Shown here in pieces: positions 3,057 through 64,000 of a stretch of DNA of 64,000 bases. Under the pieces are notes generated by a model, which worked only from the letters and a program-made list of their open reading frames with translations, made no database searches and was not told where the DNA came from. The translations under genes were made by a program, and so were the position numbers. Origin of the DNA: Deltaproteobacteria bacterium (GTDB lineage: Bacteria > Lernaellota > Lernaellaia > JACKCT01); contig JACKCT010000001.1 of NCBI GenBank assembly GCA_020633895.1, forward strand, positions 462,130 to 526,129, written 5' to 3'. The first letter of the stretch is position 1. Each line of letters starts with the position of its first letter.

Positions 3057-3065
3057 AATCCGCGC

Positions 3066-4769: not shown

Positions 4770-4784
4770 GGCGGGGCATGAGGG

Positions 4785-39649: not shown

Positions 39650-39697
39650 CCGGTGTACCTCCAAGGCGGCACTGACCGCCAAGACCATTTCATTCAG

Positions 39698-41263: not shown

Positions 41264-41285
41264 TGAAGTTTACAACCCACGACAA

Positions 41286-41358: not shown

Positions 41359-41385
41359 AGACCGAAGGCAAATCACCATCAAGGT

Positions 41386-41610: not shown

Positions 41611-41659
41611 GGTGTCTCCTGACCTGTTCGTTCCAAGAAAACGGCGAGGCACATCGCCG

Positions 41660-41875: not shown

Positions 41876-41925
41876 GGGGACTCCTTCGACGTCGGAAAAC
41901 TGGTGTTATGCATGGGGGTTGTCCA

Positions 41926-43278: not shown

Positions 43279-43904
43279 CAGTCGTCCCCCTCGTCATCCA
43301 GGCGCATCGCCGCGTATTTGAGCCAGTGGCCGCGAAAGAGCGTCGGCGGGGTGTCGTCGTATTCGACGGAAAGGTTATAGCGGCCGTCCGGGCTGGAGGC
43401 GTCGGCGTAGCGATATTCTTCGCCGATCGTCACCACTTTGGGCAGATCCCCTTCCACGCCGATGCATTTGGCCGTGCCCACTTCCTCGACAACGAAACGC
43501 TCGTCGCCGACCGCCAACCAAGCGCCCACTTTCGGAGATCGGGACGAAAAATCCTTCGGCGTGTCGATTTGCTTTTGCAGGGACAACTCGCCGTCGTCCT
43601 CGGTGAGCCACTCCACGCTTCCGTCATGCATTTCCAGGTACCATTCGTCCCAGAATCCCTCGCCGTACGAATATCGCGCCCGGCCCAGGACACAGAAGCG
43701 CCGCTGGAACAGCGACCCGGTCGCGCCTCGGTAGAGTCGGGTAAAGCCTTCGGGCAGCACGGCCTGCTTGCCGGCGTCCTGGATGCGCCCTTCGTCCCAA
43801 TAGACCGCGTTATCGCAGTATTCGCACACGAACATGGCCAAGCCGGGATTGTAGATCTCGTGGGGCGCGCCGCAGGACGGACAAGTGATGAAGCGATCGG
43901 CCAT
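43275..43904 (-). CDS. zinc-ribbon / DUF4178-like protein (shorter paralog)
   Basis: MADRFITCPSCGAP...CEYCDNAVYW zinc-ribbon N-terminus like 41926..43278; start chosen at an internal Met (ATGA overlap with speH stop). Confidence 0.6.
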   Translation of the reverse strand: MADRFITCPSCGAPHEIYNPGLAMFVCEYCDNAVYWDEGRIQDAGKQAVLPEGFTRLYRGATGSLFQRRFCVLGRARYSYGEGFWDEWYLEMHDGSVEWLTEDDGELSLQKQIDTPKDFSSRSPKVGAWLAVGDERFVVEEVGTAKCIGVEGDLPKVVTIGEEYRYADASSPDGRYNLSVEYDDTPPTLFRGHWLKYAAMRLDDEGDDW

Positions 43905-44299
43905 CAGGACGCCTCGCCCGGCTTGCGTTCGTGGCTGGGGGGCTCCATGCCCCGGGCGATGGAGGTGACTCGGTGCTCCTCGGAGGGAAGGGCGGCCACC
44001 AGACCCTCGACGATGCGCTCCCCGATGGAGGGGTCGCCGCAGGTGAACACGTCCAATGTCGCCGCGCCGCGCTCGGGCCAAGTGTGGATCGTGACATGGC
44101 TTTCGGCCAGGATCACCACGCCGGTTACGCCCTGGGGTTCGAAACGGCGGAAGTGCGTTGCGAGGATGGTGGCTCCGCCGTCCCGGGCGCAGCGGCTCAG
44201 CGTCGCCTCCAAGGCGGATTCGTCGTCCAGCAGCGCCGCGTCGACCCCGAAAAGGTCGAGCAGATGGTGCGTGCCGAGTGCGGAAGTATGAGGCATCAC
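43904..44299 (-). CDS. speH: S-adenosylmethionine decarboxylase proenzyme (class 1 small type)
   Basis: LGTHHLLDLFGVD and ESHVTIHTWPE motifs (conserved self-processing site region of bacterial SpeH/SpeD). Confidence 0.85.
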   Translation of the reverse strand: MMPHTSALGTHHLLDLFGVDAALLDDESALEATLSRCARDGGATILATHFRRFEPQGVTGVVILAESHVTIHTWPERGAATLDVFTCGDPSIGERIVEGLVAALPSEEHRVTSIARGMEPPSHERKPGEAS

Positions 44300-49347: not shown

Positions 49348-50499
49348 ATGCGCTTTTCCCAAGACGCCGACGTTGCCTTTGTCATCCCCACGCGCAACCG
49401 CCGCGACCGCCTGCTAGCGACCTTGGAACGCCTGGGGGAGACGCCGGGACCGGACGTCGAGGTGGTTGTCGCCGACAACGCCTCGGACGACGGCACCGTG
49501 GAAGCCGTGCGGGAGGCCCATCCCCACGTTCGGGTTTTGGCGCTGGATTCCAACCGCGAGTCGATGGCGCGAAACGTCGCGGCGCAGGCAACCGGCGCTC
49601 GGGTGATTGTGATGCTCGACGACGATTCCTACCCCGAGGAAGGCGCGACCGAGGCGCTGGCGCGGGCGTTGGAGGACCCGTCGTTGGGCATCGCGGCGGC
49701 GATGGTGCGTTTGCCCGATGGCATCCGGGAGGAAGGCGGCGCGCCCCATGTGCCCATCGGATGCGGCATGGCCCTGCGTCGCGCGGATTTCCTCGCCCTC
49801 GGCGGATTCGCGCCGTACTACGGCACCTATGTCGAGGAATACGATCTGGCGATCCGCATGCTCGACCGGGGCCTGCGCGTCGAATACCTCCACAACGCCG
49901 TCGTAACGCACGAGCAAGGCGAGCGCGCGAGCTTCGATTTTCTCGTCGGACGCTTGATGCGCAACAACGTCTATCTGGCCTATCGCTTTTTTCCGGACGC
50001 CGACGCCCAGCGCTTCGCCGATTGGGCCTGCAAGCGCTACGCGGTTTTGGCCGATCAAAAAGGGGCGAAGGAAGGCTATCTGAACGCGCTTTCGCAGGTG
50101 AAAAAGGCGGTCAAGGACGGACGCCGCGACCGCTTCGACCTGGCGGACGAGGCGACGCTCGACATGGTGTTTCCCTATCGCCTGGCCCGTCGCCGCATTG
50201 CCGAAGCTCTGCCGGACGACGCCCGCCCGGTCGTTTTCCTGCGCGCGGGAAAAGAGATCAACGACCTCATCGCGGCGGCCCGCTCCCTGGACCACGACGT
50301 CTTCGCCGTCTACGACGACGGCCTTCTCTCGCGCCTGCGGGAAATCGACGGCGTCCCCGTGCGTCCTATCGCCGATTTTGTTTCCTTCGACGAACACCTG
50401 GTCATCGGCGGGCTCTCGCCGGGATTCATCGAAAACACGAAGCGCCTCGCCGTCGGCACTGATTGGCCGACACCGGTGGCGTTGGACGGCTCCGAATGA
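49348..50499 (+). CDS. glycosyltransferase family 2
   Basis: VAFVIPTRNRRDRL...VVVADNASDDGT...MLDDDS GT-A fold DxD signatures. Confidence 0.8.
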   Translation: MRFSQDADVAFVIPTRNRRDRLLATLERLGETPGPDVEVVVADNASDDGTVEAVREAHPHVRVLALDSNRESMARNVAAQATGARVIVMLDDDSYPEEGATEALARALEDPSLGIAAAMVRLPDGIREEGGAPHVPIGCGMALRRADFLALGGFAPYYGTYVEEYDLAIRMLDRGLRVEYLHNAVVTHEQGERASFDFLVGRLMRNNVYLAYRFFPDADAQRFADWACKRYAVLADQKGAKEGYLNALSQVKKAVKDGRRDRFDLADEATLDMVFPYRLARRRIAEALPDDARPVVFLRAGKEINDLIAAARSLDHDVFAVYDDGLLSRLREIDGVPVRPIADFVSFDEHLVIGGLSPGFIENTKRLAVGTDWPTPVALDGSE

Positions 50500-51644
50500 C
50501 GCAAAAGACCGCCCTGATCGTGACCGACGTGACCGCTCCGGGCGGCGTGGACACGTACATCGTCGCGCTGCACGACGCGGCGTATCGCGACGGTTGGGAT
50601 GTGCATGTGCTGATGGACAAAGGCGAGGGATCCGACCGCCTTTTTCGGACGCTGCATCGCCGGGGAGCACGGATCACCCGCGCGGGTCTATACCACCGGA
50701 CGCACGACGAAACGGCGCGGGCGGCGGCGACGGACGCCGTGCTGCATGACATTGCCCCGACCGTCGTCCATGCCGTTTGTCCGGCGCCCTGGAACACGGT
50801 GGTGCCTCGCGAGCGTGCGTTGGAGGCCGGAGCGAGGCTGATCTTCACGGAGCAGTATGTCGCGGAGGGATTCACCTTTGAGCCTTCCTTGAAGGAACGC
50901 ATCGACGAGCTTTACCGCCGCGCCGATCGCGCCATCGCTGTGAGCAAAAACAACCAACGTCTCCTCGCCGATATGTACGGCTTCCCGTCCGACAAATTGG
51001 TGCTCATCCCCAACGCCGTGCCCACCGAGGGGCCGCCCGCCAAATCGGTCATGGAGAAAGCCCGCGTCCTGGCCGATCTGGGATTGCCCGAACGCCCGCA
51101 CCAAGCCGTGTGCGTCGCGCGCCTGGACGACCAGAAGGGCATCGATGTGCTGGTGCAGGCGGCGGCTCGGCTGCCGGTGGAACTGCGTCGCGGGTTGTGC
51201 ATATCCGTTTTCGGCGACGGACCGAATCGCGAGGCCCTTTTCCAGATGGGCATGCGCGCCGGTGTGGGCGATGTGATGTACTACTGGGGTTGGCGCGAGA
51301 ACGCCGCCGAGATGATCGACGCGTTCGACCTGTTCATCCTGCCCAGCCGCTCCGAAGGCCAGCCCTTCGCCTTGCTCGAAGCCCTGGCGCGAGGCATTCC
51401 CACCATCGCGACGCGCGTCTCCGGCATCCCGGAAGTGCTCATGGACGGCCAAGGCGGCGATCTGGTCCCCCCCGACGACCCGGCCGCCCTCGCCATCGCC
51501 ATCGAAGCCTATCTGCGCGATCCAAGCATCCTGACGCAAAAATCCCGCGTCGGCCGCGCCCATGTGCGGACGTATCACGACCTGACAACGAATATGGCGA
51601 CGACGATGAAGTTGTGGCGGGGTGGGGTAGTCGGCACGGACTGA
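50496..51644 (+). CDS. glycosyltransferase family 4 (GT-B)
   Basis: C-terminal EGQPFALLEALARGIPTIATRVSGIPE GT4 motif; ATGA overlap with upstream GT2. Confidence 0.8.
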   Translation: MTQKTALIVTDVTAPGGVDTYIVALHDAAYRDGWDVHVLMDKGEGSDRLFRTLHRRGARITRAGLYHRTHDETARAAATDAVLHDIAPTVVHAVCPAPWNTVVPRERALEAGARLIFTEQYVAEGFTFEPSLKERIDELYRRADRAIAVSKNNQRLLADMYGFPSDKLVLIPNAVPTEGPPAKSVMEKARVLADLGLPERPHQAVCVARLDDQKGIDVLVQAAARLPVELRRGLCISVFGDGPNREALFQMGMRAGVGDVMYYWGWRENAAEMIDAFDLFILPSRSEGQPFALLEALARGIPTIATRVSGIPEVLMDGQGGDLVPPDDPAALAIAIEAYLRDPSILTQKSRVGRAHVRTYHDLTTNMATTMKLWRGGVVGTD

Positions 51645-51805
51645 CGGATCGCAAGCGATCCTGCATGCCGGCGTGTGAGTCGGACGGGGCACGGGAAAGC
51701 GATGCGTTGAATTGACTTGTACCGTTACGAGCAAGGCTCGGCAGGGCTTAGCGCGATTCTGAATTCGGCTGGAGCGAAGCGACGAACGGCACGGGTCTTT
51801 CAACG

Positions 51806-51844
51806 ACGCGTCAGCGTGCAGGATACCTTGGTATCCGTTAGTCC
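51806..51844. repeat. stem-loop repeat, family B (reverse orientation copy)
   Basis: ACGCGTCAGCGTGCAGGATACCTTGGTATCCGTTAGTCC, reverse complement of the 25874..25913 unit; between convergent GT4 and rSAM genes. Confidence 0.45.
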
Positions 51845-51859
51845 GTCGGGACTACCCGA

Positions 51860-52870
51860 CTAGCAGCCCGCCGTGTTTTCACAGCGTTTGCAGAGGAAAT
51901 CGTCGGGCGACTCGACTTGGCCCGTGACCATGCCGACGAGATTGCTGTAGGGGTCGGATTGGAAATATTCGACGAGGCTCATGTCGGCCAGGGACGGCAG
52001 TGCCGTTTCGCCATGGTAATCCATGCAGCACATGCGGATGCGGCCGTCGTAGAGGATGTGGATCCACTGGTCGACGCGCCAGCAGTGGAAGGGGTTGGCC
52101 GGGCCGATTTCCCGCACGCGCCCGATTTTGTTGAGATGGGCGTTGCGCTCGGTGCGTCGGATGGTCCCGGCCCGGTCGTGAAAAAGGAACGCGTCCACGT
52201 CAACGGTCGCCGGGTCGATGCCTTCGCGCTCGAGAACCCGCTCCCAATAGGCGCGATAGTCGGCCTTGCCGAAGTAGGTGATGTTGCCTTTCAGTGACGT
52301 TCCCGCGCCCCGTAGTTTCAAATTCAACCGCCCGCCTGATCGCTTGAACAACCGCACCAGATTCGCCGTCGCCCGCTCGTAGTCGAGCTTCATGATGAAT
52401 TCCATCGACGTTGAGTCGATGCCGTGGTGAGAGAGCCAGATCTCGTGGCGACGGCCGTCGAACGCGGCCAGGAGTTTGTCGATCACCTTGTCGGTCAGGG
52501 CCGCGCCGTTGGTGGAAATCTCGACGAGGGTGCCGGGGAAGGCGTCGTAGATGCGTTCGATGCGCTCGAAGATTTTCGGGTCGATCAACGGCTCCTGCAT
52601 CAAATAGGGGCAGACCTTGCCGTCGTTGATCGTCGCGCCGAAGGGCGCCAGGTCGTCGAGGATCTTCTCGAACAGCGCGTCGCTCATCCGCCCGGGATTC
52701 TGCGCGTGCCAGCTTTCCGAATACGGGCAAAACACGCAGTCCGCGTTGCAGCGGGAGTGCGTTTGGATCTGGACGTAACGGATCTTCGGCACACCCGGCG
52801 GCAAAGGGGCGAGCACATCATCGTGGATTTTTTCGGGAATCGCGGCCATGAAACCTCGCCTTATCGTCAA
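51860..52870 (-). CDS. radical SAM / SPASM-domain protein (paralog of the N-terminal domain of the 6422..14053 megaprotein)
   Basis: IQTHSRCNADCVFCPY (Cx3Cx2C), RMCCMDYHGE...LCKRCE line up with IQTTSRCNSGCVMCPW, LPCCMDWRRK...LCVGCE of the megaprotein. Confidence 0.8.
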   Translation of the reverse strand: MTIRRGFMAAIPEKIHDDVLAPLPPGVPKIRYVQIQTHSRCNADCVFCPYSESWHAQNPGRMSDALFEKILDDLAPFGATINDGKVCPYLMQEPLIDPKIFERIERIYDAFPGTLVEISTNGAALTDKVIDKLLAAFDGRRHEIWLSHHGIDSTSMEFIMKLDYERATANLVRLFKRSGGRLNLKLRGAGTSLKGNITYFGKADYRAYWERVLEREGIDPATVDVDAFLFHDRAGTIRRTERNAHLNKIGRVREIGPANPFHCWRVDQWIHILYDGRIRMCCMDYHGETALPSLADMSLVEYFQSDPYSNLVGMVTGQVESPDDFLCKRCENTAGC

Positions 52871-52915
52871 CGTGTCATCGTCATCGGCGGCGAAGTTCTT
52901 GACGATCCGCGAACG

Positions 52916-54553
52916 TCAGACGGCGTCGGCGACGGGCAGGGAGTCGGCCTCGCGAGGGGCGAGGATGGGGCGGTTGTTGAGCAAGCCGTCGACGATGAGA
53001 TCCAGCTCCGGGATGCGCCCTTCGGCCAATTCATCCAGCGACGAGATGCACAGCCGTGAGATTTCGAAGGGGCGGCTGGTCTCGAAGAACCGCAGTTGGA
53101 GGTGCGTTCGGTTGAGGAAGAAATAGAGATAGCGTCGCGCGATTTCGATTTCGTGTTTCGTCGGCGCCGAGAGGTCGGCGGGGGACTCGACCCAGCGCAG
53201 ATATTCGTCCACGGACGCGGGATGCCGTCCAAAGCCGCGATTCGCGAAGTGAGCGTCCCCGGCGATGATCGCCGGCACGCCGTGCAGAAGCGCTTCCAGG
53301 CCGATCTTCGAGGTGTAGGCGACCACGGCGTCGGACATTCGCAATAGTTCGTAGGAGCTGACGCGGTCGTCGTTGCGGACGATGCGCACGTTCGCGGGCA
53401 GCGGGTCGAATTTCGAGGCCAGGTGCCCGGCGACGCTCTCCCGCGAACGGTTGCCTTCCATGACCATGTCCTCGGCCGGGTGGGGGCGAATGACGACTTG
53501 CACATCGGTGCCGGCCAGGTGCGCGACCGTTTGCTCGACCCACTCCATCATCGAAAAGAACACCGTTCGCCGGTCCACGGCGGCGCCGTCCCAAGACACA
53601 TTGCTGAATAGCGTGACGACCGGTCGCGCCGGGTGCAGGTGGAGCATTTCGCGAATCGCGGCCGGATCGTCGACCGGATTCGGGTTGTAAAACGAGTCGC
53701 GATACTGCTCGCGAATCCACGCATCCAGGCGCGCGTTTTCCGCGTCCGACAGCGGCTCGTCGCGCCAAGCGTTCCACCCATCCGCGAAACGCAGCCGCGA
53801 AACGCGGTAGCGATTGTCGAAGCTCCAATACCCGCCGCTGCCGCAATAGCCGGGCAGAAAGCCCGATTCGTAACTGGCCACGCGCACGCCTCGGCGTTCG
53901 GCGACGGCGTAGAGCAGGTTGTACCAGAAGAAGTCGCCGTTCGGCGCGACGATCAGATCGTACGACGTCTCGTTGAGCAACGCTTCGTACGCGTCGATCA
54001 ACGTGATTGCCGAGGCCAGATACTTGCGCCAGGTTTCGGTGGCGAAGTCGTCGTCGGCGATGGCGTCGCGGCACAAGTGGCGCGAGACGGAGACCTCGCA
54101 CAATCTTCCGACGGGCAGGCCTCGGTGAGAAAAGTCGAAACACTCGCGGGTCGAAAGATGGCGCAAACTTTCGTGCGTCGCCTGCACCTGGCCGGGTCGG
54201 CGAAAGTCCTTGATCGAACGCACGGGAAAATCCAACGCTCCGGCAAGGCGCTGCGTTGTCGAGGCGCAGCCTTCGCAGATGAATTCGGGTTCAGGCCGGT
54301 CGATCGAACGATTGTTGCAGATCGGCAGATTGCGACAGGAAAGGAACTCGACCTCGCTTCCGTCCAGCCGCAGTCGGTGGGCAAGCATCAATTCGAACGT
54401 CAGCAGAAACGAGCCGCCGCGTAGGTTCGCGAACAGAACGCGAGGTCCGTGGCCGTGCCGAGGACGCAGTGCCGCCTTTTCGCGACACGCCCGCAACGCA
54501 TCGGCGAGCGCTCCAACAGGATCGTCGCTTAAAGCGAACCCGCCGTCCGCCAT
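52916..54553 (-). CDS. capsule polysaccharide biosynthesis-like protein (KpsS/LpsZ-type; putative glycosyl- or phospho-transferase)
   Basis: ~545 aa, Cys-rich N-terminal region, central GT-B-like region (RPHPAED..., VPAIIAGDAHF); family assignment tentative; start chosen at MADGG. Confidence 0.45.
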   Translation of the reverse strand: MADGGFALSDDPVGALADALRACREKAALRPRHGHGPRVLFANLRGGSFLLTFELMLAHRLRLDGSEVEFLSCRNLPICNNRSIDRPEPEFICEGCASTTQRLAGALDFPVRSIKDFRRPGQVQATHESLRHLSTRECFDFSHRGLPVGRLCEVSVSRHLCRDAIADDDFATETWRKYLASAITLIDAYEALLNETSYDLIVAPNGDFFWYNLLYAVAERRGVRVASYESGFLPGYCGSGGYWSFDNRYRVSRLRFADGWNAWRDEPLSDAENARLDAWIREQYRDSFYNPNPVDDPAAIREMLHLHPARPVVTLFSNVSWDGAAVDRRTVFFSMMEWVEQTVAHLAGTDVQVVIRPHPAEDMVMEGNRSRESVAGHLASKFDPLPANVRIVRNDDRVSSYELLRMSDAVVAYTSKIGLEALLHGVPAIIAGDAHFANRGFGRHPASVDEYLRWVESPADLSAPTKHEIEIARRYLYFFLNRTHLQLRFFETSRPFEISRLCISSLDELAEGRIPELDLIVDGLLNNRPILAPREADSLPVADAV

Positions 54554-57500
54554 GATCCCTGACCCTTTCGTAGCGCCCGTTTCGCGGGGCCGTAGTTGAT
54601 TTCGAATCCGCCGCCGGCCACGTCGATGCGGATCGGCCGCTCCATCGTATAAATATCCGCGAACCATTCCGGCCCCAGCGTCGCGACCTTTTCGTCCGCC
54701 TCCACATCCACCATGTCATGCACGTCCTGCGCGGTCCAAAGACCGTCCAGCTCCCGCACCCAGACCACCGACTCGTACGAATCCACCAGCGCCATGCGAC
54801 CGTTCGGATGCACCGCGATGTCTTCAATGAAGTCGATGCGGCGGTCGGGCAGAGGGATCGTCTCCCACTTGCGGAAACCGCGCCCGAAGCGCACCGTTTG
54901 CGGTGGTTCGGCGTCGACGACGTACAATCCCTCCCGCGTCACGGCCAGCGGGGTCGAGGCGTCAAAGACGATGCCCAGGTCGACCCATTTGCTGTTTTCC
55001 CGGTCCCACACACGTACGCGTTGTGACTCGGAATGCAGCACATAGACGCGGAAGTGCATCCAGTTGTGGACCGAGCGGATGAAATCGCCGGCCATGTCCT
55101 CGAACGCGCACGGGTCGTCCTCGAACGCCGCTCGGGCCGTCGCCACCTCGGCCATGCGATTTTCGTAGTCCTTGAGCATGCGGAAGCTTTTCTGCGTCAC
55201 GGTCCCGCGCGGCGACGATTTCATCCAGTCTGACAGGCGCTCCCACGACCGCTGGGCCGCCTCCGCGTCCCAACAACGCAGAGCGCATTCGAGAGCCAGA
55301 CGCAAGGGATAGCCGGTCAGATCCCGTTCGTTGATCGCCCGATCGACAACCTGAAACGCCCGCTGGGGCCAGCCTTTTTGCAGCAGACGGATGACGTCCA
55401 CGTACAGGTCGGTCTCCGGCAGCTTGTGCTGCTTCATGGCCTCGGCGGTCAGGACACGATGGCGCTCCATGTTCGGGCGGTGGTGGCGCGTATAAATGGC
55501 CATGCGTCGGTCGCGGCGGAAGGCGCTCAAGTCGGTGCGACGACGCACGCCGTCGCGACGATGACGATAGGCGAATTGGGCGCCGTCTTCTCCGGCGAGC
55601 CAGGACTGCATCAGGCTTAGGCCGTTGGAGACGCGAGTGTCATCCGGCGATTTCCACGCGGCGTCCACGGCAACGGACACGCGTGCGATCGCCTCCGCGG
55701 ACAGGGCACGGGGCCAGGTCGAAGCGCCGAAGCGGTCGTGATAGGCGTCGAGCCGCGCGATCTTCACGGCCAGGACACCCGCCTGGATCGGTGTCGTCGT
55801 TACGACGCGCGCCATCATCGCTTGCAGCAGCGCGAGGTCGCGACGGCGCGGATCGTCGTATTCCGCGTCCACGCTGGCGGCCACGGAAATGACGAGTTCG
55901 CGCAAGTGGTCGTCATCGACGGTGCATAGATATTCGTCGAGCAACAGCGCGGCGAAATATGTCAAAGCGCGCGTCAGGCCGACATCGTACGTCGCCCATT
56001 CGCGGATGATTTCCTGTTGGCGCGCGACGACCTCTCCGCGTAGTTCTTCGTCGGCGGCGTAGCGATCGAATAGGGCGGCGAGCTGTTTTTCGTCGTCGAA
56101 CAGGCATTCGTCCATTTCGAGCAGGCCGATCGACGGCGCTCGGCGAGCCAAAAAGAATCCGCCCGCCATCAAGCCGTCCACCAGGCGCGGGTGCTCGAGC
56201 TGGTATTGGTTGACGTGCAGGTTGATCGGCGTCTCGGCGAACAGACGCGCCAGTTCGGGGCCGTTGTCGATCACTCCGCGTGCGAACTTCGACAACTTCG
56301 GATGGGCGTCCCAGCGACGGCCGTAGAGCCCGATCTTGTCGGTTTTTGCGGCCAGCGTTTCAATCGCCCGATGGCGTGACGAGGCGCCGACGATGTTGTC
56401 GAAAACCTCGACGACCAGATTGTCGTTCACATGGGCGCCGAGCTTTCTCGCTTCGAACGCGCTCTTGATTTCGCGATAAATCGTGTCGAACGACGGCAGA
56501 TCTTCGCCGCATTCCAGGCGCGCCAGCAGTTCGTCGACAAAATCCTGGAGCGCGTCGGCGATTTCCGGCTTGCCTTCCCGGTAGCGCTGCACCATCGTCA
56601 CAGCGCCTTCACGGGCGTCTTTGCTGATATTGCTGACGAACGCGACGTCGTGCTCGCCGTTCCCGGCGTCGTCCGATTCGGCGTAGATCTCCGGATTGGT
56701 CAGCGGCGGTAATTCGAACAGCCGCTCCGGCGCCATTCCCACCGTTTCCAGCGATCGCGTAAACCCGACGCACAAATCCCGTCGGCCCAACAGGCGGATC
56801 GACGGGCGCGTGTGGATCGACGGCATGTGGTCCTGGGCCCAGCAGACGAACGGCAGATTCTTCGGATAAATCTTCGCGTACTCGCCGCGCAGATGATCGA
56901 CGAAAATCAACCAATCCGGACGAAACTCGTCCAACTCCGCCAGGAGCCACGCGCCGTTGAGGCGATCAACCGGCGTCGCTTCCTCGATCACGCGCACCGT
57001 TCCGCCCATCGCCTCCAACGCCATGCGAATATCCCGCACGGAGTATTGGATGAAATACGAATGGCGGTTGGAGATGATCATCGTCTTCAGTCCGCCCGGC
57101 GTCAGGAAGCGGGACATCATCGTGCGCGCGTCCAGGGCGTCGTAGTAGGCATCGATTTCGACCTTGCGGCGGCCGGTGATATTCGTCACCTGCGTTTTCG
57201 CGCGACGCATCGATTCCAGCAGCGCCCCGGCATCGAACGCGCCCAGCGGCAGAACTCGATCCGGAAACGGCTTGGCCAGATCGCCGGTGAAGAAGGCCTC
57301 CAGGTCGTTGCCGGCCTCGGGTCCGATAAAGAAGTACAAACGCCCGGACGCAATCGCGTCGGCAAAATCGTGGGCCGCCATGTTCAAGCGGAAGACGTCC
57401 ATCGTCGGCTCGACGATATACACCGGCGTTTTCGGCCCGCCGTCGACCGGCGGCTGGGCTTCGAGGCAAGCGAGGATCTCGTAACCGGCGCGCATGCCGA

Positions 57501-57753
57501 GCAGGAGAGGCGGGCTCTGCTTTCCGGCGGCGGCGACGTGGTTGGCGGCAAACGTCGCGGCAACCTGGGCGGCGTTGTCGATGGGCGAGAGCGCCGTCAG
57601 GCCCAGGGGATCCTTGCGCACGATGACCCATTCACCGGCGTTATTTTGCGTGGCCTGGTATCGCGAGTCGGGTTCGGCCGCCAGCAGTCGTTCAACGACA
57701 TGCGGCTGGTGGGCGTGCAGCGCGGTGAGGTTGGATTCGAGAAAGTTGCTCAT
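54529..57753 (-). CDS. large (1075 aa) multidomain protein with N-terminal DUF115 (Maf/MptE-like) domain
   Basis: N-terminus MSNFLESNLTALHAHQPHVVERL matches the conserved start of DUF115/motility-accessory-factor-type proteins; GGAG RBS 9 nt upstream; long C-terminal extension of unknown function. Confidence 0.55.
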   Translation of the reverse strand: MSNFLESNLTALHAHQPHVVERLLAAEPDSRYQATQNNAGEWVIVRKDPLGLTALSPIDNAAQVAATFAANHVAAAGKQSPPLLLGMRAGYEILACLEAQPPVDGGPKTPVYIVEPTMDVFRLNMAAHDFADAIASGRLYFFIGPEAGNDLEAFFTGDLAKPFPDRVLPLGAFDAGALLESMRRAKTQVTNITGRRKVEIDAYYDALDARTMMSRFLTPGGLKTMIISNRHSYFIQYSVRDIRMALEAMGGTVRVIEEATPVDRLNGAWLLAELDEFRPDWLIFVDHLRGEYAKIYPKNLPFVCWAQDHMPSIHTRPSIRLLGRRDLCVGFTRSLETVGMAPERLFELPPLTNPEIYAESDDAGNGEHDVAFVSNISKDAREGAVTMVQRYREGKPEIADALQDFVDELLARLECGEDLPSFDTIYREIKSAFEARKLGAHVNDNLVVEVFDNIVGASSRHRAIETLAAKTDKIGLYGRRWDAHPKLSKFARGVIDNGPELARLFAETPINLHVNQYQLEHPRLVDGLMAGGFFLARRAPSIGLLEMDECLFDDEKQLAALFDRYAADEELRGEVVARQQEIIREWATYDVGLTRALTYFAALLLDEYLCTVDDDHLRELVISVAASVDAEYDDPRRRDLALLQAMMARVVTTTPIQAGVLAVKIARLDAYHDRFGASTWPRALSAEAIARVSVAVDAAWKSPDDTRVSNGLSLMQSWLAGEDGAQFAYRHRRDGVRRRTDLSAFRRDRRMAIYTRHHRPNMERHRVLTAEAMKQHKLPETDLYVDVIRLLQKGWPQRAFQVVDRAINERDLTGYPLRLALECALRCWDAEAAQRSWERLSDWMKSSPRGTVTQKSFRMLKDYENRMAEVATARAAFEDDPCAFEDMAGDFIRSVHNWMHFRVYVLHSESQRVRVWDRENSKWVDLGIVFDASTPLAVTREGLYVVDAEPPQTVRFGRGFRKWETIPLPDRRIDFIEDIAVHPNGRMALVDSYESVVWVRELDGLWTAQDVHDMVDVEADEKVATLGPEWFADIYTMERPIRIDVAGGGFEINYGPAKRALRKGQGSWRTAGSL

Positions 57754-57764
57754 TTTCAACTCCG

Positions 57765-58787
57765 CTAACGGCGGTGCGCAACGGCGGCCGAGCGAGGCGC
57801 CGTGCGGGGGAGGCGAGAGGCCAGATTCCAAATTGTCGAAAAACCCAAGAGGGGCTGCATCCGTTCGATGAGACGCCAGGAACGCGCCCCGGCCAGATAC
57901 GCGATCTCCTTGAGGCGCGCGCGGCCGATGTCCGGGCGTCCGTAGGCCAGCGCAAACTGCGCCTCGGCGAGGGCGTCTTCGATGAGCTGGTTGCGCAGGC
58001 GCGGCGTCGCGTTGTCATGACCGAGAAGGCGTCGTTCGGCGTCGAACAATCGTTGAACAGCCGCGGCGGCGTCGTATTTCGCCGCGTTAATCGTCGGGCG
58101 AGTTTGCCAGAACGCCCGCCGGACGGCGTCCGAGTTTGAATCCTGCGTCGTGTTGTGCCGCGTCGAAACGCTCGCCTCGTGACGCCGATAATGCAGCAGC
58201 ACCTCGGGCACATTGGCGAAGCGCGCGCGGTCGGCGAGGCTCAGCCACAGGGCGTAGTCTTCCGCATGGGGAACGTCGGGGTAGCCGCGATCGGCAATCA
58301 CCTCGCGACGCATCATGACACTGGGATGGGCGAACGGCGGATGCAGCGCCACGCGGCGCGCCAGCCATTCGGGCGAGCAGGGGACGTGCCATTTGTCGAC
58401 AACATTGTCGTCCCCGTCGATGACGGCGATGAAGCTGCCGGCGATGCCGATGCCCGGTTGCTCGTCCAAAAACGCGACCTGCCGCTCCAGGCGCGTGGGC
58501 AGGGCGATGTCGTCGGCGTCCATGCGCGCGATGTAGCGCCCTCGGGCCAGGGCGAGCCCGGCGTTGAGTGTCGCGACAAGTCCGGCGTGGGCCCGTCGAA
58601 TGTAGCGGACGCGCGAGTCGTCGCCGGCACAGGCAATATCGGCCGAGGCGTCGGTGGAGCCGTCATCGACGATCAGCAATTCGAAGTCGTCGAACGTCTG
58701 ACCGAGAATGCTCGCGACGGCCGACGCCAGGTATCGCTCGCCGTTGTGCACCGGCATCAGGACGCTGACGATGGGCGCCTTGCTCAT
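57765..58787 (-). CDS. glycosyltransferase family 2
   Basis: MSKAPIVSVLMPVHNGERYL...ELLIVDDGSTD GT2 signatures; ATGA overlap with the upstream GT4 stop. Confidence 0.8.
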   Translation of the reverse strand: MSKAPIVSVLMPVHNGERYLASAVASILGQTFDDFELLIVDDGSTDASADIACAGDDSRVRYIRRAHAGLVATLNAGLALARGRYIARMDADDIALPTRLERQVAFLDEQPGIGIAGSFIAVIDGDDNVVDKWHVPCSPEWLARRVALHPPFAHPSVMMRREVIADRGYPDVPHAEDYALWLSLADRARFANVPEVLLHYRRHEASVSTRHNTTQDSNSDAVRRAFWQTRPTINAAKYDAAAAVQRLFDAERRLLGHDNATPRLRNQLIEDALAEAQFALAYGRPDIGRARLKEIAYLAGARSWRLIERMQPLLGFSTIWNLASRLPRTAPRSAAVAHRR

Positions 58788-60115
58788 GGCGTCGCCTCCG
58801 ACGTCGAAGGCGAACCGGCCGCCGAGTTGGCGTGCATCGAGTGGATGAGAGCCGCCAGGGAGGGCGCCGCCGTGCGCCACGTCTGGGGATGCACCCGCGC
58901 GGTGCGTTGCGCCAGATCGGAAACGCCGCCGCATTGGTCGATCACCCGGCGGTAATATTCCAATCTCCACTGAGCCGCGCGAGCGGGGGTGTAGCGGTCG
59001 CGCACGCGCAGGTAGGTCAGCGCCGCCAGCGTATCCCGCAGGCGATGGTTGCGACGCAGCCGCAGCATGGCCTCGGCCAGGTCCGCCGGGTCGTCGGGCT
59101 CGACGAACACACCCGTCTCGCCGAGCATTTCCACCATGCCCGTGCCGTACGTGGCGATCACCGGCCGCCCGGCGCTCATCGCCTCCAGGCAGACGTTCGG
59201 AAAGTTTTCGAACAATGACGGAAAAACGCAGAAGCTGGCGCGCCGGTAGCTCTCGGCCAATTCGTGCCGGGGAATCGCGTCGAGAAAACGCACTCGCCGA
59301 CGTTCGTGATCGGTGAGCAGACCCTGCAAGTAGTCGCGCATCGAGCCGCCGCCCGGCGCCGTATTCGTGTCCCGGCCGATCAGCGTAAAGACGACGTTCG
59401 CGTCCAGGGCCAACATCGCCTTGGCCGCCTGAATCAACGTGACCACGCCCTTGCGATGCTCCAGTCGGCCGACAAACAGGATTTCGTCGCCGATCGGCGG
59501 CGTATAACCCTGGATGAAACCGTCGGCGTCGTAGGGGTGGGGCACCACCTCCACATCCCCGCGATGCACATCGTCGGCGAGATGGTCGATCATCGCCCGC
59601 GACGGGGCGCAGACGCCGTCCGCCGCTTCAATCGGCAGGCGTTCCAAATGCTTCCAGGCGGGGGTGTCGGAATGATTGAGGGCGGCGACGACATAGTCGG
59701 GCGTGTGCAGGTTCACGACCGTCGGCACGCGCAGCGCCGGGTCGCCCAGCGCCATCCAGCCGGTCGCCAGGCATTCCGGGATTTCAACGATGTCCAATTC
59801 GCCGCGCTGCAAAAACTCACGCAGTTGGCGGCGCATGATGGACGCCAAATGAATCCACGTGCCCGCCTCGGCGAAACGGCCGATCAGGCCCCGGGCCAGC
59901 GGCTCGGGAGGGTCGAAGGGCGCTCGATGGACATGCACGCCGCTGGCGTCGATGGTCGTGGGATCGTCCGGCCGGCGGATGGTGAAGATGTGCACCTCGT
60001 GGCCGGATTGGGCGAACGCGCGGCTGATCTGCTCGACGTACGTGCCGATGCCGCCGCCGAAAAACGGCGGATATTCGTGCGTCACGAATCCGATACGCAG
60101 GCGCGGTCCGTTCAT
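58784..60115 (-). CDS. glycosyltransferase family 4
   Basis: Real coding part starts MNGPRLRIGFVTHEYPPFFGGGIGTY (443 aa); the ORF-track's longer Arg-rich N-terminal extension is rejected; C-terminal CVFPSLFENFPNVCLEAMSAGRPVIAT GT4 motif. Confidence 0.8.
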   Translation of the reverse strand: MNGPRLRIGFVTHEYPPFFGGGIGTYVEQISRAFAQSGHEVHIFTIRRPDDPTTIDASGVHVHRAPFDPPEPLARGLIGRFAEAGTWIHLASIMRRQLREFLQRGELDIVEIPECLATGWMALGDPALRVPTVVNLHTPDYVVAALNHSDTPAWKHLERLPIEAADGVCAPSRAMIDHLADDVHRGDVEVVPHPYDADGFIQGYTPPIGDEILFVGRLEHRKGVVTLIQAAKAMLALDANVVFTLIGRDTNTAPGGGSMRDYLQGLLTDHERRRVRFLDAIPRHELAESYRRASFCVFPSLFENFPNVCLEAMSAGRPVIATYGTGMVEMLGETGVFVEPDDPADLAEAMLRLRRNHRLRDTLAALTYLRVRDRYTPARAAQWRLEYYRRVIDQCGGVSDLAQRTARVHPQTWRTAAPSLAALIHSMHANSAAGSPSTSEATP

Positions 60116-61783
60116 CCCACCGCCTCCCGCACCGGGAAGTGATACAGGCGCACCACTTCGATGCCCGCGTTCAGGAAGATCTCGCTGTTGGCCCACAGAG
60201 TCGATTCGATCGTGTCCGACGAGAGTACCACCGCGTCCAGATCCATCCCGACCGCGTCCGATCGCGAGACGATGGGCCATTCTCCGAGCGTCAGTCCGCG
60301 CTGATCCGGGCTGTCGTCGATGACGGCGAGGATGCGCAGGCCGTGTTGCTCCAGATAGGACTGGGAAGACAGCAGCTTTCGTGTGTGCTGACCGGCGCCG
60401 TAGAAGGCGATGCGCTTGATGCCGCGTTCGGGAGCGACTTTTTGCACGATGCGTTCGGCGACGGGATGCACCCCCTGCGTCACCTCGTCGACGCGGCGGT
60501 GGAGCATCAGATCGACCGCGTCGGCGATGTCCGGCATCACCGCTTCCCAGACCGCGTTGTCCACCCGCGCCAAACGGCGGTCCAGGCTCGACTGCCCCGC
60601 GTACGCGCCGACCACGTGCTCGTAAAACGCGACCCGCGCGGCGGCGATTTTGGCCGGGGCGAAGTTTTCGCGAACGCGGCGCGCGACTTTCGAACCGATG
60701 GCGGCGCACCGTTCGGGCGCGTTCCAAAGGGTGAGGATCTTGGCGGCCAAACCTTCGGCGTCGTCCGGGTCCACGTACACGCCGTCGTCGGCCAGCATGT
60801 CGACCATGCCCGAGCGACGCCCGGCGATCACGGCCCGTCCGGCGGCCATCGCTTCCAGACAGACGTTCGGGAAATTTTCGAAGCGGGAGGGGAACACGCA
60901 GAATCGCGCCTCGGCCAGGTGCGTCGCGAGGACGGCGCGGTCGACCTTGCCGACGAAACGCACCCGCTGGGCCGTCGCGTCCGTCAGCCGGGACGTGAGA
61001 TATTCGCTCATGGAACCGCCGCCGGGCGCGTCGGGCGTGTCGGCGCCGATCAGGTCCAGATGCACATCCGGCGCGATTTGCCACACCCGCTCCATGGCGT
61101 CCATCAGCGTCAGGATGCCTTTGCGCGGCTCCAACCGGCCGACGAACGCGATGCGCTTACTGTCCGCGGGCCAAGGGGACGGCTCGCGGCAGAAGGCGTC
61201 GGCGTCGAAGGGATGGGGCAGGACACGGGGCGTGCCGACCAGGCGCACGCGACCGTCGATGTAGTCGGCCATGGCCTGGCAGGGCGCGCAAACGGCGTCG
61301 GCCAACGCCATCTCCAACCATTCGAACGACGTGCCGCGCAGGGCGGGCGTTTGGTTGAGTTCGTTGATGAAATCCGACGGCGTGTGGCAGTTGACGACCG
61401 ACGGCGTCGTCCACTCGGCCGACAGCAGCGTCAGCCAGCCCGGCGCTTCCCATTCGGGAAACTCGACAATGTCCAGCCGCGTCGAGGCCGCGAAATCCAA
61501 AAGGGCGTCATGGAACAAGGAGGCCGCGTGCAGCCATTCGTTGGCCGCGTGCCAGAAACCGGAAAGCCCGCGCGCGTCGGCGGCGGGCGGGTCCCAGCGT
61601 AATCGGTGGACATGGACGCCGGGCGGGTCGCCGTCGGCGGGGCGGTCGTCGGGCCGTCGGATCGTGAAGACGTGCACCTCGTGTCCCTGTTCGGCCAGCG
61701 CGCGGGAGACTTCGGCGACATACGTGCCGACCCCGCCGCCGAATTCGGGAGGGAACTGACGGGTGACGAATCCGATTTTCACG
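60112..61783 (-). CDS. glycosyltransferase family 4 fused to a C-terminal PglD/NeuD-N-terminal-like Rossmann domain
   Basis: Tandem paralog of 58784..60115 (KIGFVTRQFPPEFGGGVGTY); GTG start with GGAGA RBS, overlapping upstream stop (GTGA); extra ~150-aa C-terminus IAFYGAGQHTRKLL...ILAVIDDSPDQRG...PIVS. Confidence 0.7.
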
Positions 61784-63137
61784 CGGAAATCTCCATGGCC
61801 GCTTTCATGATGGACCGGCGTCGGTCGTGCGTTTTGCGCAGTTGGGAGACGAGATCCTGCGATTCCTGGGACCACGCCGTTTCGTCCGGCGCCGTCGCGT
61901 CAGCGTAAATTTTCACGAACGCCGCCACGTCCTCGTCGATGCCGCGCGGGCACACGGAGGCGTCGGCCAGGCTCTCGAAGAGCTTGTCGTCGTCGGCCAG
62001 ACGCGCCACGCGCTCGGCCAAGGCTTTCGCGTCGCCGGTGGGGAAGGTCAGGCCGTTTTGCCCGTCGCGCACCAGGCACGTCATGCCCGGCAGATCGGTA
62101 CAGACGACCGGTGTGCCCAGGCTCAGCGCTTCGAGGATCGCGACCGGCGCATTCTCCGGGCTGATGGACGGCAGTACGAGCACGTCGATGTCGCGATACA
62201 GCGCCAGCAACGCAGAAGGTTCGAAGCTTCCGGCCAACTCCACGTTGGGCAGTTTGCCGGCTTCCACATAGAGCCCGGCGTCGCGGGGATTCTTGTTCCA
62301 GATTTCCGGCTCGCCGTAGATCTTCCAGACCAGGTTGTCCCGATCGGCCAGCGCCTTCATCGCGTCAAAGAGCGCTTCCACGCCCTTGATGCGGTTCCAG
62401 CGGCCGACGAAGGCGAAGCGCCGCTTGGCCGAGGGCTTTTTCGTGAAGTCGGCCTTGGCGATGGACTCGGGCATGCCGTAGGGCCAGACCTGGATCTTCT
62501 CCCCGGACGCTCCGGCGAAGCTGATGTAGTCGGCCATGATCGGCGAGGGGCAGTGGTGCATCGCGTAGCCGGTGGCCAGGGTGCGGATGATCTTCGAGCG
62601 GTACTCGGAGACGAACTCCCAATCGTCGTCGTCCACGTCCGGGTAGCAGCCCCGGCACTCGGCCTTGGGCGGCATGGCGCAAAGCGACGCGTCGGGCAGG
62701 AGGAACCGGCCGTTGCGGCACGACCACAGAAAGTCCACGTGCGTTCCGACGACGGGGATGTTTTCGTGCATGGCGGCCAGGGCGACCGAACTCATGAACC
62801 AGTGATTGGTCACATGCACCACATTCGGCCGGGTGGCGCGAAAATGCAGACGAGCCTCGTCATAGAGCTCGGGGTAGAACTGCAACGCGTACAGCGGCGC
62901 GGGAACCTTCGGAAAATCGAACGCGAAGCGATGGACGGGCACGCCGTCGTAGCGCCCCTCGATCGCCCGGCCGCGCCGGTAATGGAAATCCAGCGTGGTC
63001 ACGCTCGCGTCGTGTCCCTGGGCGCGCATGGCACGGGCCAGATGATGGGTATAAACCTCGGCTCCGCCGTAAACTTCCGGCAGATACCCGGTAATCGCGT
63101 ATTGAATCCGCAAGTTATTCCTCCCGGTCTTTCTCAA
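61779..63137 (-). CDS. glycosyltransferase family 4
   Basis: 452 aa, GT-B layout, C-terminal LVLPSISPENAPVAILEALSLGTPVVCTDLPG motif. Confidence 0.75.
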   Translation of the reverse strand: MRKTGRNNLRIQYAITGYLPEVYGGAEVYTHHLARAMRAQGHDASVTTLDFHYRRGRAIEGRYDGVPVHRFAFDFPKVPAPLYALQFYPELYDEARLHFRATRPNVVHVTNHWFMSSVALAAMHENIPVVGTHVDFLWSCRNGRFLLPDASLCAMPPKAECRGCYPDVDDDDWEFVSEYRSKIIRTLATGYAMHHCPSPIMADYISFAGASGEKIQVWPYGMPESIAKADFTKKPSAKRRFAFVGRWNRIKGVEALFDAMKALADRDNLVWKIYGEPEIWNKNPRDAGLYVEAGKLPNVELAGSFEPSALLALYRDIDVLVLPSISPENAPVAILEALSLGTPVVCTDLPGMTCLVRDGQNGLTFPTGDAKALAERVARLADDDKLFESLADASVCPRGIDEDVAAFVKIYADATAPDETAWSQESQDLVSQLRKTHDRRRSIMKAAMEISA

Positions 63138-63182
63138 GTGTCTCTATCGGGCGGGAGGGCGAAGTGAATGAGGATATGGGAG

Positions 63183-63935
63183 TTACAGAAGGATGACCGG
63201 GCGTCGGTCCGATGTGACGGCGCGACAGCGATGGACCATGTCGTCGGCGAATTGGGACGACGGGATGAGGATGGCGGCGGCGGGCGTCTCGACGACCCGT
63301 TCCATGGAAACGACGGGAATGTCGAACAGGCGCGTGCCGTGGAGGGCGTCGTCGTCGTCGATGATGGCGCAGACGCTGCCGCCCAGCTCCGGCGCCAGGC
63401 AGAACAGCCGCCAGGTCGACAGCCCCGCTCCGTAGACGGCGAAGGGCACCTTGGTCGCCAGGCCGTTGTGGAAACGGCGGATCAGCCGAGCCGAGGGGGC
63501 CAAGCTGGGGAATTCGTTCTCGATTTGCTCGGCCGGGCGGCTTTCGATGATCGCCTGGGCCAGCCGGATCATGGGCGCGGTCATGTCCGAATCCAGCGCG
63601 CTGCGTCGCCCGGCGAAGAACGCATGAAAAGCCAATTCCAAGGCTTCGACCGGCAGATCGTCGTCGCGGCCGTCGGCAATCGCGCTTTCGGAAAGATTAA
63701 GCCAGCGCATGACGGAGCACGACACGGACGGGTGCTCGGCACGCAAGGCGAATTCGATCAGCCGCTGGGGGAGGTGGCGCAATTCGACGTCGGAAAGCTC
63801 GGAGCCTTGAGCGCTCCACCAGTCAATCGGCCCCTCCGGCCCGCGCAGCAAATCCATGACGGCCACGGCGGCGTCCCGGCGGCGGTCGTTGTCCGCGTCC
63901 AGTTCGTTGTACCAATCCCACAGGTCGAGATGCAT
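63183..63935 (-). CDS. hypothetical protein with C-terminal PglD/NeuD-N-terminal-like Rossmann domain
   Basis: C-terminus FAVYGAGLSTWRLFCLAPELGGSVCAIIDDDDALHGTRLFDIPVVS is paralogous to the C-terminal domain of 60112..61783. Confidence 0.5.
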   Translation of the reverse strand: MHLDLWDWYNELDADNDRRRDAAVAVMDLLRGPEGPIDWWSAQGSELSDVELRHLPQRLIEFALRAEHPSVSCSVMRWLNLSESAIADGRDDDLPVEALELAFHAFFAGRRSALDSDMTAPMIRLAQAIIESRPAEQIENEFPSLAPSARLIRRFHNGLATKVPFAVYGAGLSTWRLFCLAPELGGSVCAIIDDDDALHGTRLFDIPVVSMERVVETPAAAILIPSSQFADDMVHRCRAVTSDRRPVILL

Positions 63936-64000
63936 CTTGAGTAGGGCCTGGCGCTCGGGCGAGGTCAGATCCCGGTCGGCCAGCAGGCCGCGGACCTTCG

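Follow-up and report, generated by a model that had tools for sequence, protein, structure and literature searches.

The locus described here raises the question what a tightly packed set of glycosyltransferase genes assembles in an uncultured bacterium, and on which acceptor. It occupies the end of a 64,000-nucleotide (nt) stretch of DNA, called the window in the following, from an organism deposited as "Deltaproteobacteria bacterium" (GTDB lineage Lernaellota; assembly GCA_020633895.1, contig JACKCT010000001.1, positions 462,130 to 526,129 of the forward strand). The island in question begins at window position 49348, continues beyond the window end and encodes glycosyltransferases (GTs) of several families, a KpsS/KpsC-like enzyme, a radical S-adenosylmethionine (radical SAM) enzyme with a SPASM domain and a multidomain protein of 1074 amino acids (aa) that we call the giant. 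Members of the families GT2 and GT4 are designated by their length (e.g., GT4-556), and loci used for comparison carry numbers such as L007.

An original prediction made from the sequence alone had regarded the giant as a DUF115/Maf-like protein, had seen a recurring Rossmann domain similar to the N-terminus of PglD/NeuD acetyltransferases and had connected the locus with nonulosonic-acid (NulO) glycosylation of flagellin or other surface proteins. Its observations were partly confirmed and its interpretation was partly supported: a glycosylation island with operon-like packing that includes a KpsS/KpsC-type enzyme and a SPASM radical SAM enzyme is indeed present. According to our current reading, to which we give about an even chance, the region represents the larger part of a conserved, self-contained cassette for the assembly of a glycan in the cytoplasm.

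Domains and fold of the giant

The giant is encoded on the minus strand (54529-57753). The DUF115 assignment, whose failure the original prediction had itself named as refuting it, does not hold: the corresponding Pfam family PF01973 has no match in the giant (even at E ≤ 10 for the N-terminal 608 aa) and is absent from all 47 relatives that were scanned. The only Pfam family above its threshold in the giant is PF13524 (Glyco_trans_1_2, CgeB-like) with 39–41 bits at a cut-off of 25. This score together with a two-Rossmann fold places the giant among the GT-B glycosyltransferases. The fold was obtained from an AlphaFold2 model calculated on an alignment of 65 relatives (pLDDT 86.7, pTM 0.85) and compared with the PDB by Foldseek. 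Four parts can be distinguished in it.

The N-terminal domain (aa 1-215; 57109-57753, minus strand) is probably a Maf_flag10_N-like degenerate Rossmann or methyltransferase-like domain. In the giant itself Maf_flag10_N (PF20157) matches only the 43 residues 6-48 and stays below threshold (16–18 bits, cut-off 23.5, E 0.0016–0.007), and 11 of the 47 relatives show this match at E ≤ 0.01 with a best value of 2.8e-6. The top match of the N-domain profile in the PDB is Maf (5mu5) in two collinear segments, at an E value of 0.17 that is non-significant alone. Foldseek finds methyltransferase-fold proteins, namely MnmC2 and spermidine synthase, which agrees with how the Maf N-domain has been described, namely as a Rossmann fold in degenerate form that bears methyltransferase-like motifs (PMC11339370). 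The N-domain of the giant is thus probably of Maf type and its catalytic domain is not.

This catalytic core (aa 220-610; 55924-57096, minus strand) is a CgeB-like GT-B unit with PF13524 in its C-terminal half. Its structural neighbours are GT4-type GT-B enzymes, and the GT-B matches listed by Foldseek all have a probability of 1.00: the methylmannose-polysaccharide mannosyltransferase 7qsg (E 1.7e-5), PimB', BshA, MshA and TreT, with the O-glycosyltransferases OGT and SPY at lower rank. Residues D308, R460 and R523 are invariant across the 65 relatives, and H521 is nearly so.

A helical-repeat, TPR-like region follows (aa 611-896; 55066-55923, minus strand), which is recognised from the secondary structure of the model and is conserved solely among relatives of about 1200 aa. 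The last part (aa 905-1055; 54589-55041, minus strand) is rich in β-strands and forms a partial NHL-like propeller, for which Foldseek returns the NHL repeats of PknD, TRIM3 and Mei-P26 over 100–150 columns. Compared with the ~1200-aa relatives this propeller-like end lacks some 100–150 aa, and for its final 18 residues the confidence of the model is very low. The gene, which overlaps the next one by 25 nt, may encode a truncated C-terminus.

The mini-Rossmann module

A second unusual component is a module of about 100 aa that is present in three island enzymes, perhaps in four. It is located at the C-terminus of GT4-556 (aa 451-550; 60133-60432, minus strand), where a hidden Markov model (HMM) of the module scores 132 bits, and in the last 91 aa of GT2-493 (63186-63458, minus strand; 110 bits). 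A third copy ends GT2-527, which is encoded beyond the window, and shares 36% identity over 96 aa with the C-terminus of GT4-556 (BLASTP E 4e-9). A weak and degenerate copy without the GxG motif can be found in GT2-383 (aa 300-353; 50245-50406, plus strand; 6 bits). In L079 and L015, open reading frames (ORFs) of about 400 aa that neighbour the giant-family gene are matched by the module HMM at E 4e-6 to 1e-4 in their C-terminal region.

The module is more widespread than the window shows. In L007, the locus of the closest relative, four proteins contain it, i.e. a stand-alone 355-aa protein, a methyltransferase (at its N-terminus) and two GT4s. An HMM built from seven copies gives 45 domain matches in 20 of 87 loci in N-terminal, internal or C-terminal position, and the partners across these loci are GT2 and GT4 enzymes, methyltransferases and KpsS-like/radical SAM proteins. 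In an alignment of 22 copies both glycines of the GxG motif (G69 and G71) are invariant, and D96 after strand 2 as well as S128 are conserved in at least 90%.

The original prediction took this domain for a recurring PglD-type N-domain without the hexapeptide part. Class and recurrence were correct (the E value of 4e-9 given above; no hexapeptide, i.e. left-handed β-helix, domain reported by Pfam in any island protein), and the family proved to be PF22674 (C2185-like_N) instead of PglD_N (PF17836). The latter is the top Pfam match but reaches just 14.6 bits at a cut-off of 23.4 (E 0.052), next to further weak matches of CoA_binding_3 (E 0.17) and Methyltransf_14 (E 2.9e-4), and PglD is not among the top 50 Foldseek matches. 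Membership in PF22674 is based on the fold and on precomputed annotations of GT2-527 (weak) and of the orthologous fusions in L007, L088 and L090; a direct hmmscan listed no PF22674. A word-index search with the 22-copy alignment returned nine proteins, five of them annotated as PF22674, and the same kind of search with a single 163-aa module query gave no matches.

In the PDB the module profile matches the WbpM-like N-domain 3nkl (2e-4), PerB (2e-3), FkbM (4e-3) and VioB (0.02), where PerB and VioB are acetyltransferases of the PglD type that are matched in their N-domains. An AlphaFold2 model of the module (pLDDT above 90) has Rex, 3nkl, 2g6t, FkbM, WlbA, WbaP and KijD1/TcaB9 as Foldseek neighbours. 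Among them 2g6t is found on rank 5 with an rmsd of 3.0 over 94 columns, and going by the family name we take it to be the structure of CA_C2185 behind PF22674. All these fold and profile neighbours are nucleotide-binding or nucleoside diphosphate (NDP)-sugar-binding mini-Rossmann domains.

The KpsS-like enzyme and its radical SAM partner

The gene downstream of the giant (52916-54553, minus strand) encodes a Capsule_synth protein of 545 aa, a KpsS/KpsC-like transferase of the GT107 type. It is a member of PF05159 with 33.4 bits at a cut-off of 20, and in the PDB the profile of its family matches KpsC structures only, the best E value being 9e-5. Residues D322, H358 and P359 do not vary among six family members. 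The study of KpsC (PMC10148158) gives D160 as nucleophile and an HP motif that is common to transferases of β-Kdo (3-deoxy-D-manno-octulosonate) and enzymes using cytidine monophosphate (CMP)-sialic acid. Judged on the 45-residue KpsC peptide quoted there (PMC10148158), the spacing of 36 residues between D322 and HP resembles that between D160 and HP in KpsC; a counterpart of the Glu base was not located. These motifs suggest a CMP-activated ulosonic acid of the Kdo type as putative donor of the island enzyme. A Cys-rich stretch (CRNLPICNN...FICEGC) lies at aa 70-100, ahead of the catalytic part; KpsS and KpsC are not known to have one.

Next comes the gene of the 329-aa radical SAM/SPASM enzyme (51860-52849 or 51860-52870, minus strand). 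This protein contains the motif CNADCVFC and exceeds the cut-offs of both families (Radical_SAM 36.2 bits versus 29.5; SPASM 28.7 bits versus 21.5). No NCBIfam equivalog reaches its cut-off. Its only sequence match in the PDB is BtrN, at E 9e-7 over the first ~110 aa.

Homologues of the KpsS-like protein are present in five loci. In L052 its gene is followed by the best homologue of the window radical SAM enzyme, and in L009 (15572-19051, plus strand) a single ORF of 1159 aa combines a KpsS-like part, the mini-Rossmann module, SPASM and Radical_SAM. This Rosetta-stone fusion is good evidence that the adjacent KpsS-like and radical SAM genes of the window work together. Proteins of 509–525 aa in L088 and L090 and a polysialyltransferase-family protein (PF07388) in L007 occupy a similar gene position and contain an (R/K/G)HP motif. 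The PF07388 protein was tried as a homologue of the KpsS-like enzyme and rejected: there is no significant similarity and only an (R/K)PHP segment aligns.

Conservation of the cassette and the family of the giant

The combination of giant, GT2-340, module-bearing GT4s and radical SAM/SPASM enzyme recurs in at least five other uncultured lineages. In L088 the gene order is GT2 with module, GT4, radical SAM/SPASM (325 aa), the 525-aa protein, GT2-340 and giant. L090 starts with GT4-444 and two GT4s with module and continues with GT4-379, radical SAM/SPASM (326 aa), the 509-aa protein, GT2-341 and giant. In both loci the orthologue of GT2-340 is found directly upstream of the giant (38% identity in L088, 44% in L090), as in the window. 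L007, L009 and L010 have the giant followed by orthologues of GT4-444 and GT4-556. Full-length orthologues of GT4-556 with 38–49% identity occur in L007, L009, L088 and L090, those of GT4-444 with 44–47% identity in L007, L009, L010 and L090, and the latter carry the module in L007, L009 and L010. GT4-382, which is convergent to the main operon in the window, has an orthologue with 47.6% identity in L090, where it belongs to a cassette of genes in one orientation.

In L007 (9287-9979), L009 (9243-9959) and L010 (8284-8988) the giant is directly preceded by a conserved ORF of about 230 aa with long hydrophobic stretches. From these stretches it can be read as a putative polytopic membrane protein. 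It is absent from the window locus.

The giant belongs to a large family, for which no descriptive paper was found in literature searches. An exhaustive search yielded 1550 representatives (at 50% identity) at E ≤ 1e-3, mostly from Planctomycetota, and 301 at E ≤ 1e-30; a word-index search found seven. In species-representative genomes, scanned with a profile from a 14-sequence alignment (the 65-sequence alignment being too diverse), the family is overwhelmingly planctomycetotal (Phycisphaerae, Tepidisphaerales). Its conserved module corresponds to aa ~5-545 of the giant. Typical members have 700–800 aa, and about 13 close relatives of ~1200 aa share the C-terminal extension. The long form occurs in a few metagenome-assembled genomes (MAGs) from uncultured or "Deltaproteobacteria" lineages.

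Neighbouring genes were clustered over 84 loci of this family and the cluster representatives were analysed with Pfam. Most frequent is a GT2-383-type enzyme (24 loci; 18–24 across analyses), followed by a bifunctional enzyme with CTP_transf_like and PfkB domains (18 loci; median distance -4 nt, same strand for 15 of 20 ORFs), a DegT aminotransferase (17 loci), GT2 with module (14), GT4 with module (11), a stand-alone PF01973-like protein (11; 34.2 bits at a cut-off of 34.6), a CTP_transf_3 cytidylyltransferase (8), a methyltransferase (Methyltransf_24; 7) and a Cys-rich GT9 (5). The wider family lives among genes for the supply and tailoring of sugar nucleotides, sometimes of the CMP-ulosonic-acid kind. 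The bifunctional enzyme, e.g. in L058 (5581-7191, plus strand) and in 17 other loci, we take to be HldE-like with a domain order reversed if compared to Escherichia coli HldE, and it hints at an NDP-heptose-type sugar as donor of the family.

The stand-alone proteins of ~400 aa with near-threshold similarity to PF01973 (MptE-like/DUF115) are found in L047 (11809-13029, plus strand) and in ten other Planctomycetota loci at a median of 2.6 kb from the giant-family gene. Since the latter carries a Maf_N-like domain and a PF01973-like gene lies nearby, the Maf architecture looks split in Planctomycetota, where the two Maf domains seem to be divided between two genes. This context supports the Maf/NulO idea indirectly at the level of the family, not at the window locus.

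Organisation of the island and its continuation

Between 49348 and 64000 the long reading frames with high G+C content at third codon positions are those named in the original prediction, and all ten of its ORFs were found in the sequence (G+C content of the window ~63%). Families were assigned by Pfam and NCBIfam profile scans of the window ORFs, and in them the GT2, GT4, Capsule_synth and radical SAM/SPASM assignments hold. Six window genes as well as GT2-493 and GT2-527 match PF00535 or PF13439/PF00534 above cut-off.

The convergent pair on the plus strand consists of GT2-383 (49348-50499; Glycos_transf_2 E 2e-20) and GT4-382 (50496-51644; GT4 domains in Pfam). On the minus strand, reading upstream from the giant, follow GT2-340 (57765-58787; E 3e-31), GT4-443 without extra domain (58784-60115), GT4-556 (60112-61782), GT4-444 (61779-63113, or 452 aa from an alternative TTG start at 63137) and the truncated GT2-493 (63183-64000, with its frame open to nt 64000). 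In GT4-556 the GT4 part (aa ~16-390 of the product; 47-422 in the numbering of the 587-aa ORF that was scanned) is connected with the mini-Rossmann module by a helical linker. Its start is at 61782 and not, as proposed before, at 61783. The tandem duplication of GT4 genes is real: GT4-443 is 46% identical over 426 aa to the GT4 part of GT4-556.

That the genes are chained by 4-nt overlaps applies to several junctions (GTGA at 61782/61779, ATGA at 60115/60112 and at 58787/58784, and 50496-50499 in the convergent pair). It does not apply to the start of the giant (ATG at 57753), which is preceded by an 11-nt gap with a Shine-Dalgarno-like GGAG, to the 25-nt overlap between giant and KpsS-like gene (54553/54529) and to the 45-nt gap ahead of the radical SAM gene (52916/52870). 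Overall, same-strand packing from 51860 to the window end shows overlaps of 4–25 nt and gaps of at most 69 nt. A scan of the locus for consensus promoters and terminators gave results at chance level. A reading as defence system was rejected, the matches of PF20706 ("GT4-conflict") being weaker than generic GT4 matches on the same residues.

The giant matches at rounded 100% identity a protein of another NCBI MAG ("Deltaproteobacteria bacterium", GCA_020633875.1), whose contig JACKCU010000023.1 differs from the window by 66 substitutions in 19,472 positions, 18 of them inside the giant gene. For two other window proteins no record with the exact sequence exists. These substitutions are clustered in short patches (49438-49926, 56151-56452, 57469-57535, 58368-58458) and could reflect strain-level recombination or a mixed-population assembly. 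With this public contig the operon can be followed for ~7 kb beyond the window on the same strand. The upstream "hypothetical" protein of the original prediction (63183-63935) turned out to be the C-terminal half of the 493-aa GT2 (full gene L001 3090-4571; Glycos_transf_2 E 6e-32). Then come its paralogue GT2-527 (40% identity over the full length), a GT9-family protein and a PF01663 phosphodiesterase, after which a divergent and unrelated region begins. The whole island thus comprises ~22 kb with 13 enzymes, nine of them complete and one truncated inside the window. Among the 13 are four GT2, four GT4, the GT9 outside the window, the KpsS/KpsC-type enzyme, the radical SAM/SPASM enzyme and the GT-B giant. 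The GT9 (L002 5397-6557, plus strand, ~5 kb past the window end) is Cys-rich at its two ends, with the motifs CxxxxxxxxCxxxxxxCxxC and CAPCYKGACDHHTC, and comparable Cys-rich GT9s are found near giant-family genes in five Planctomycetota loci. Downstream of the convergent pair there are nitroreductase, AhpC, Ni-SOD and DAGAT-like genes.

Two other parts of the window deserve mention. About 35 kb from the island (29-14053, plus strand) two radical SAM/SPASM genes, an NAD epimerase/dehydratase, a carbamoyltransferase, a B12-dependent radical SAM enzyme and an ORF of 2543 aa are located. In the latter, an unusual poly-radical-SAM megaprotein, Radical_SAM stretches occur five times, along with three B12-binding domains and one SPASM domain. 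Unrelated to the island is a minus-strand region (36951-44081) with two tandem genes of the pectinacetylesterase family, a 521-aa protein with spermidine-synthase domain and two DUF4178 proteins, one of them with a zinc ribbon.

What the cassette may build

None of the 13 island proteins contains a hydrophobic segment of the membrane-helix type. Solubility is predicted for all enzymes of the island, and stepwise assembly of the glycan in the cytoplasm is therefore most likely. The giant would act there as an acceptor-recognising, possibly priming or scaffolding, GT-B transferase, and the GT2, GT4 and GT9 enzymes would extend the glycan. The KpsS-like enzyme could transfer an ulosonic acid of the Kdo type from a donor activated by CMP, using an Asp nucleophile and an HP motif, and the BtrN-like radical SAM enzyme, its constant partner, may oxidise or otherwise rearrange a sugar. 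In the module GxG is invariant, and a Ser and the acidic residue with which strand 2 ends are nearly so; it might serve its partner enzymes as a nucleotide-binding or docking tag that they have in common and by which they are coupled to one ligand or to one another. Phosphoglycosyl transferase, flippase, polymerase, exporter and chain-length regulator genes were found neither at the window locus, L007, L009, L088 and L090 nor among the frequent neighbours of the 84 loci. The repeat domains, the Maf-type N-domain and these missing export genes tip the balance a little to an acceptor that is a protein or otherwise not a polyprenol, as opposed to a classical exported polymer linked to undecaprenyl. 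A membrane glycolipid, or an ordinary polysaccharide with its export genes elsewhere, is suggested instead by the chemistry of KpsS-type enzymes, by acyltransferase genes in the vicinity and by the membrane-protein-like ORF of some loci. A more far-reaching proposal, which we consider rather unlikely, sees in the module a recruitment or ligand-sensing tag that gathers unrelated tailoring enzymes (GT2, GT4, methyltransferase, KpsS-like/radical SAM) around the giant in a cytoplasmic "assembly line" on a protein or non-polyprenol acceptor. No description of such a module-tagged organisation of glycosylation was found in literature searches.

Several points weigh against a self-contained cytoplasmic cassette. 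An acceptor gene was not identified for it, and export and priming genes could be located elsewhere in the genome. The usual acceptor of KpsS-type enzymes is a lipid at the membrane. Genes for acyltransferases (DAGAT, PlsB-like) are present near the window locus and in L007, L009 and L088; both they and the ~230-aa hydrophobic ORF are no less compatible with a glycolipid associated with the membrane than with a protein target. Packing of the island genes is tight enough for an operon, and their presumed co-transcription is read from gene spacing only. Finally, the 509–525-aa proteins at the position of the KpsS-like gene in L088 and L090 are not significantly related to it (hhalign E 0.25).

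The strongest rival is an ordinary surface polysaccharide locus (capsule, outer core of lipopolysaccharide (LPS) or O-antigen), in which the KpsS-like enzyme primes or caps a lipid-linked glycan at the inner membrane face, GT2, GT4 and GT9 enzymes extend it, and export and priming genes reside elsewhere. A Capsule_synth/KpsC-like protein combined with a GT9 of the heptosyltransferase family is typical of capsule and LPS pathways, and the acyltransferase genes and the hydrophobic ORF would find their place in it. Nevertheless, the five cassettes and their frequent neighbours lack the export and priming genes listed above, no island protein has a membrane segment, and the repeat domains of the giant are without counterpart in known capsule or LPS pathways; we regard this explanation as possible but somewhat doubtful. 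An intracellular polysaccharide or glycolipid that is never exported, comparable with mycobacterial polymethylated polysaccharides or polyglycosyl lipids, would also agree with soluble enzymes and the missing export genes. The best structural match of the giant core is the methylmannose-polysaccharide enzyme 7qsg, and loci of relatives are rich in methyltransferases and B12-dependent radical SAM enzymes. Against it stand the lack of a methyltransferase at the window locus, the generic nature of the 7qsg match (GT4-type GT-B similarity with a TM-score of 0.53 on the target) and KpsS-type chemistry, which is not known in such pathways; it appears improbable. The Maf/DUF115-type island of the original prediction, which would put NulOs on flagellin or another surface protein, is now very improbable. 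It could draw on a plausible homology of the first 215 aa of the giant with the N-domain of Maf, on CTP_transf_3, DegT and stand-alone PF01973-like neighbours in Planctomycetota, on the polysialyltransferase-family protein encoded in L007 and indirectly on the CMP-ulosonic-acid (Kdo-type) donor to which the KpsS-like enzyme points. The giant and its 47 relatives, however, do not contain PF01973 and have a GT-B core instead of a Maf/Cst-II-like fold. No flagellin-like ORF was detected in the window or in 90 loci by phmmer (query: N-terminus of E. coli FliC). Genes for NulO synthase, CMP-NulO synthetase and other pse/leg/neu-type enzymes as well as DegT, CTP_transf_3, HldE-like and DUF115-like genes are absent from the 64-kb window and ~5.4 kb of contig beyond it.

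As all domains come from known superfamilies, nothing categorically new is encoded here. The domain combination is uncharacterised and clearly conserved, as regards the way the giant is built, the promiscuous module and the coupling of KpsS-like and radical SAM enzymes. The module is attached to at least four classes of glycan-tailoring enzymes, and what it binds, be it a ligand or a partner, could account for the coordination of soluble glycosyltransferases. The Rosetta-stone fusion of a KpsC/KpsS-type and a radical SAM enzyme predicts a new sugar modification, and the giant suggests that the poorly understood N-terminal domain of Maf can likewise operate with a catalytic core of the GT-B type. 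If the product were an ordinary exported polysaccharide, the finding would be routine.

Comparison with known systems

The KpsS-like enzyme shares with the retaining β-Kdo transferases KpsS and KpsC (GT107) the family PF05159 and probably the HP motif and the invariant Asp upstream of it. It differs as a single module of 545 aa with a Cys-rich N-terminal part and by having a radical SAM enzyme as its partner, encoded next to it or in one fused protein, and export genes of the kpsMTED type (KpsMT/KpsDE) were not found at the locus or among frequent neighbours. Its partner resembles BtrN, the radical SAM 2-deoxy-scyllo-inosamine dehydrogenase, as a small radical SAM enzyme with auxiliary-cluster cysteines, and BtrN acts on a carbohydrate by oxidising an aminocyclitol. 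Similarity is confined to the radical SAM core, whereas the C-terminal domain of the island enzyme scores as SPASM.

The module has the approximate β-α-β mini-Rossmann fold and GxG(x)H motif of a group that includes PF22674, PglD/NeuD/PerB (PF17836), WbpM/WbaP (PF13727), TcaB9/KijD1 (PF08484), the FkbM N-domain and Rex. Also the acidic "DD" after strand 2, the "G.P(V/I)" turn and the occurrence in NDP-sugar-modifying enzymes are common features. In contrast with these, the island module is attached to GT2 and GT4 C-termini, elsewhere to methyltransferases and a KpsS-like/radical SAM protein, and is without the hexapeptide acetyltransferase part.

For the giant three relationships can be drawn. 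With Maf (Maf_flag10_N, MAF_flag10/DUF115 and helical C-domain; 5MU5) it probably shares the opening motif "NLxAL...P" and the segment "VxEP...D(W/F)" of the degenerate Rossmann or methyltransferase-like N-domain, and both proteins are cytoplasmic and soluble. In the giant, however, the CgeB-like GT-B core takes the place of DUF115, helical repeats and an NHL-like propeller form the C-terminus, and no flagellin or NulO genes are nearby. CgeB-type proteins (PF13524 with or without DUF3880) are related by PF13524, which matches the giant and 46 of 47 relatives; they lack the Maf-type N-domain and the C-terminal extension of 460 aa, and DUF3880 occurs in one of the 47 relatives. FlmG from Caulobacter and the O-glycosyltransferases OGT and SPY are similar in outline, being cytoplasmic and combining GT-B with a protein-interaction-type repeat domain, but the TPR domain is N-terminal in FlmG while the repeats are C-terminal in the giant (PMC7591256).

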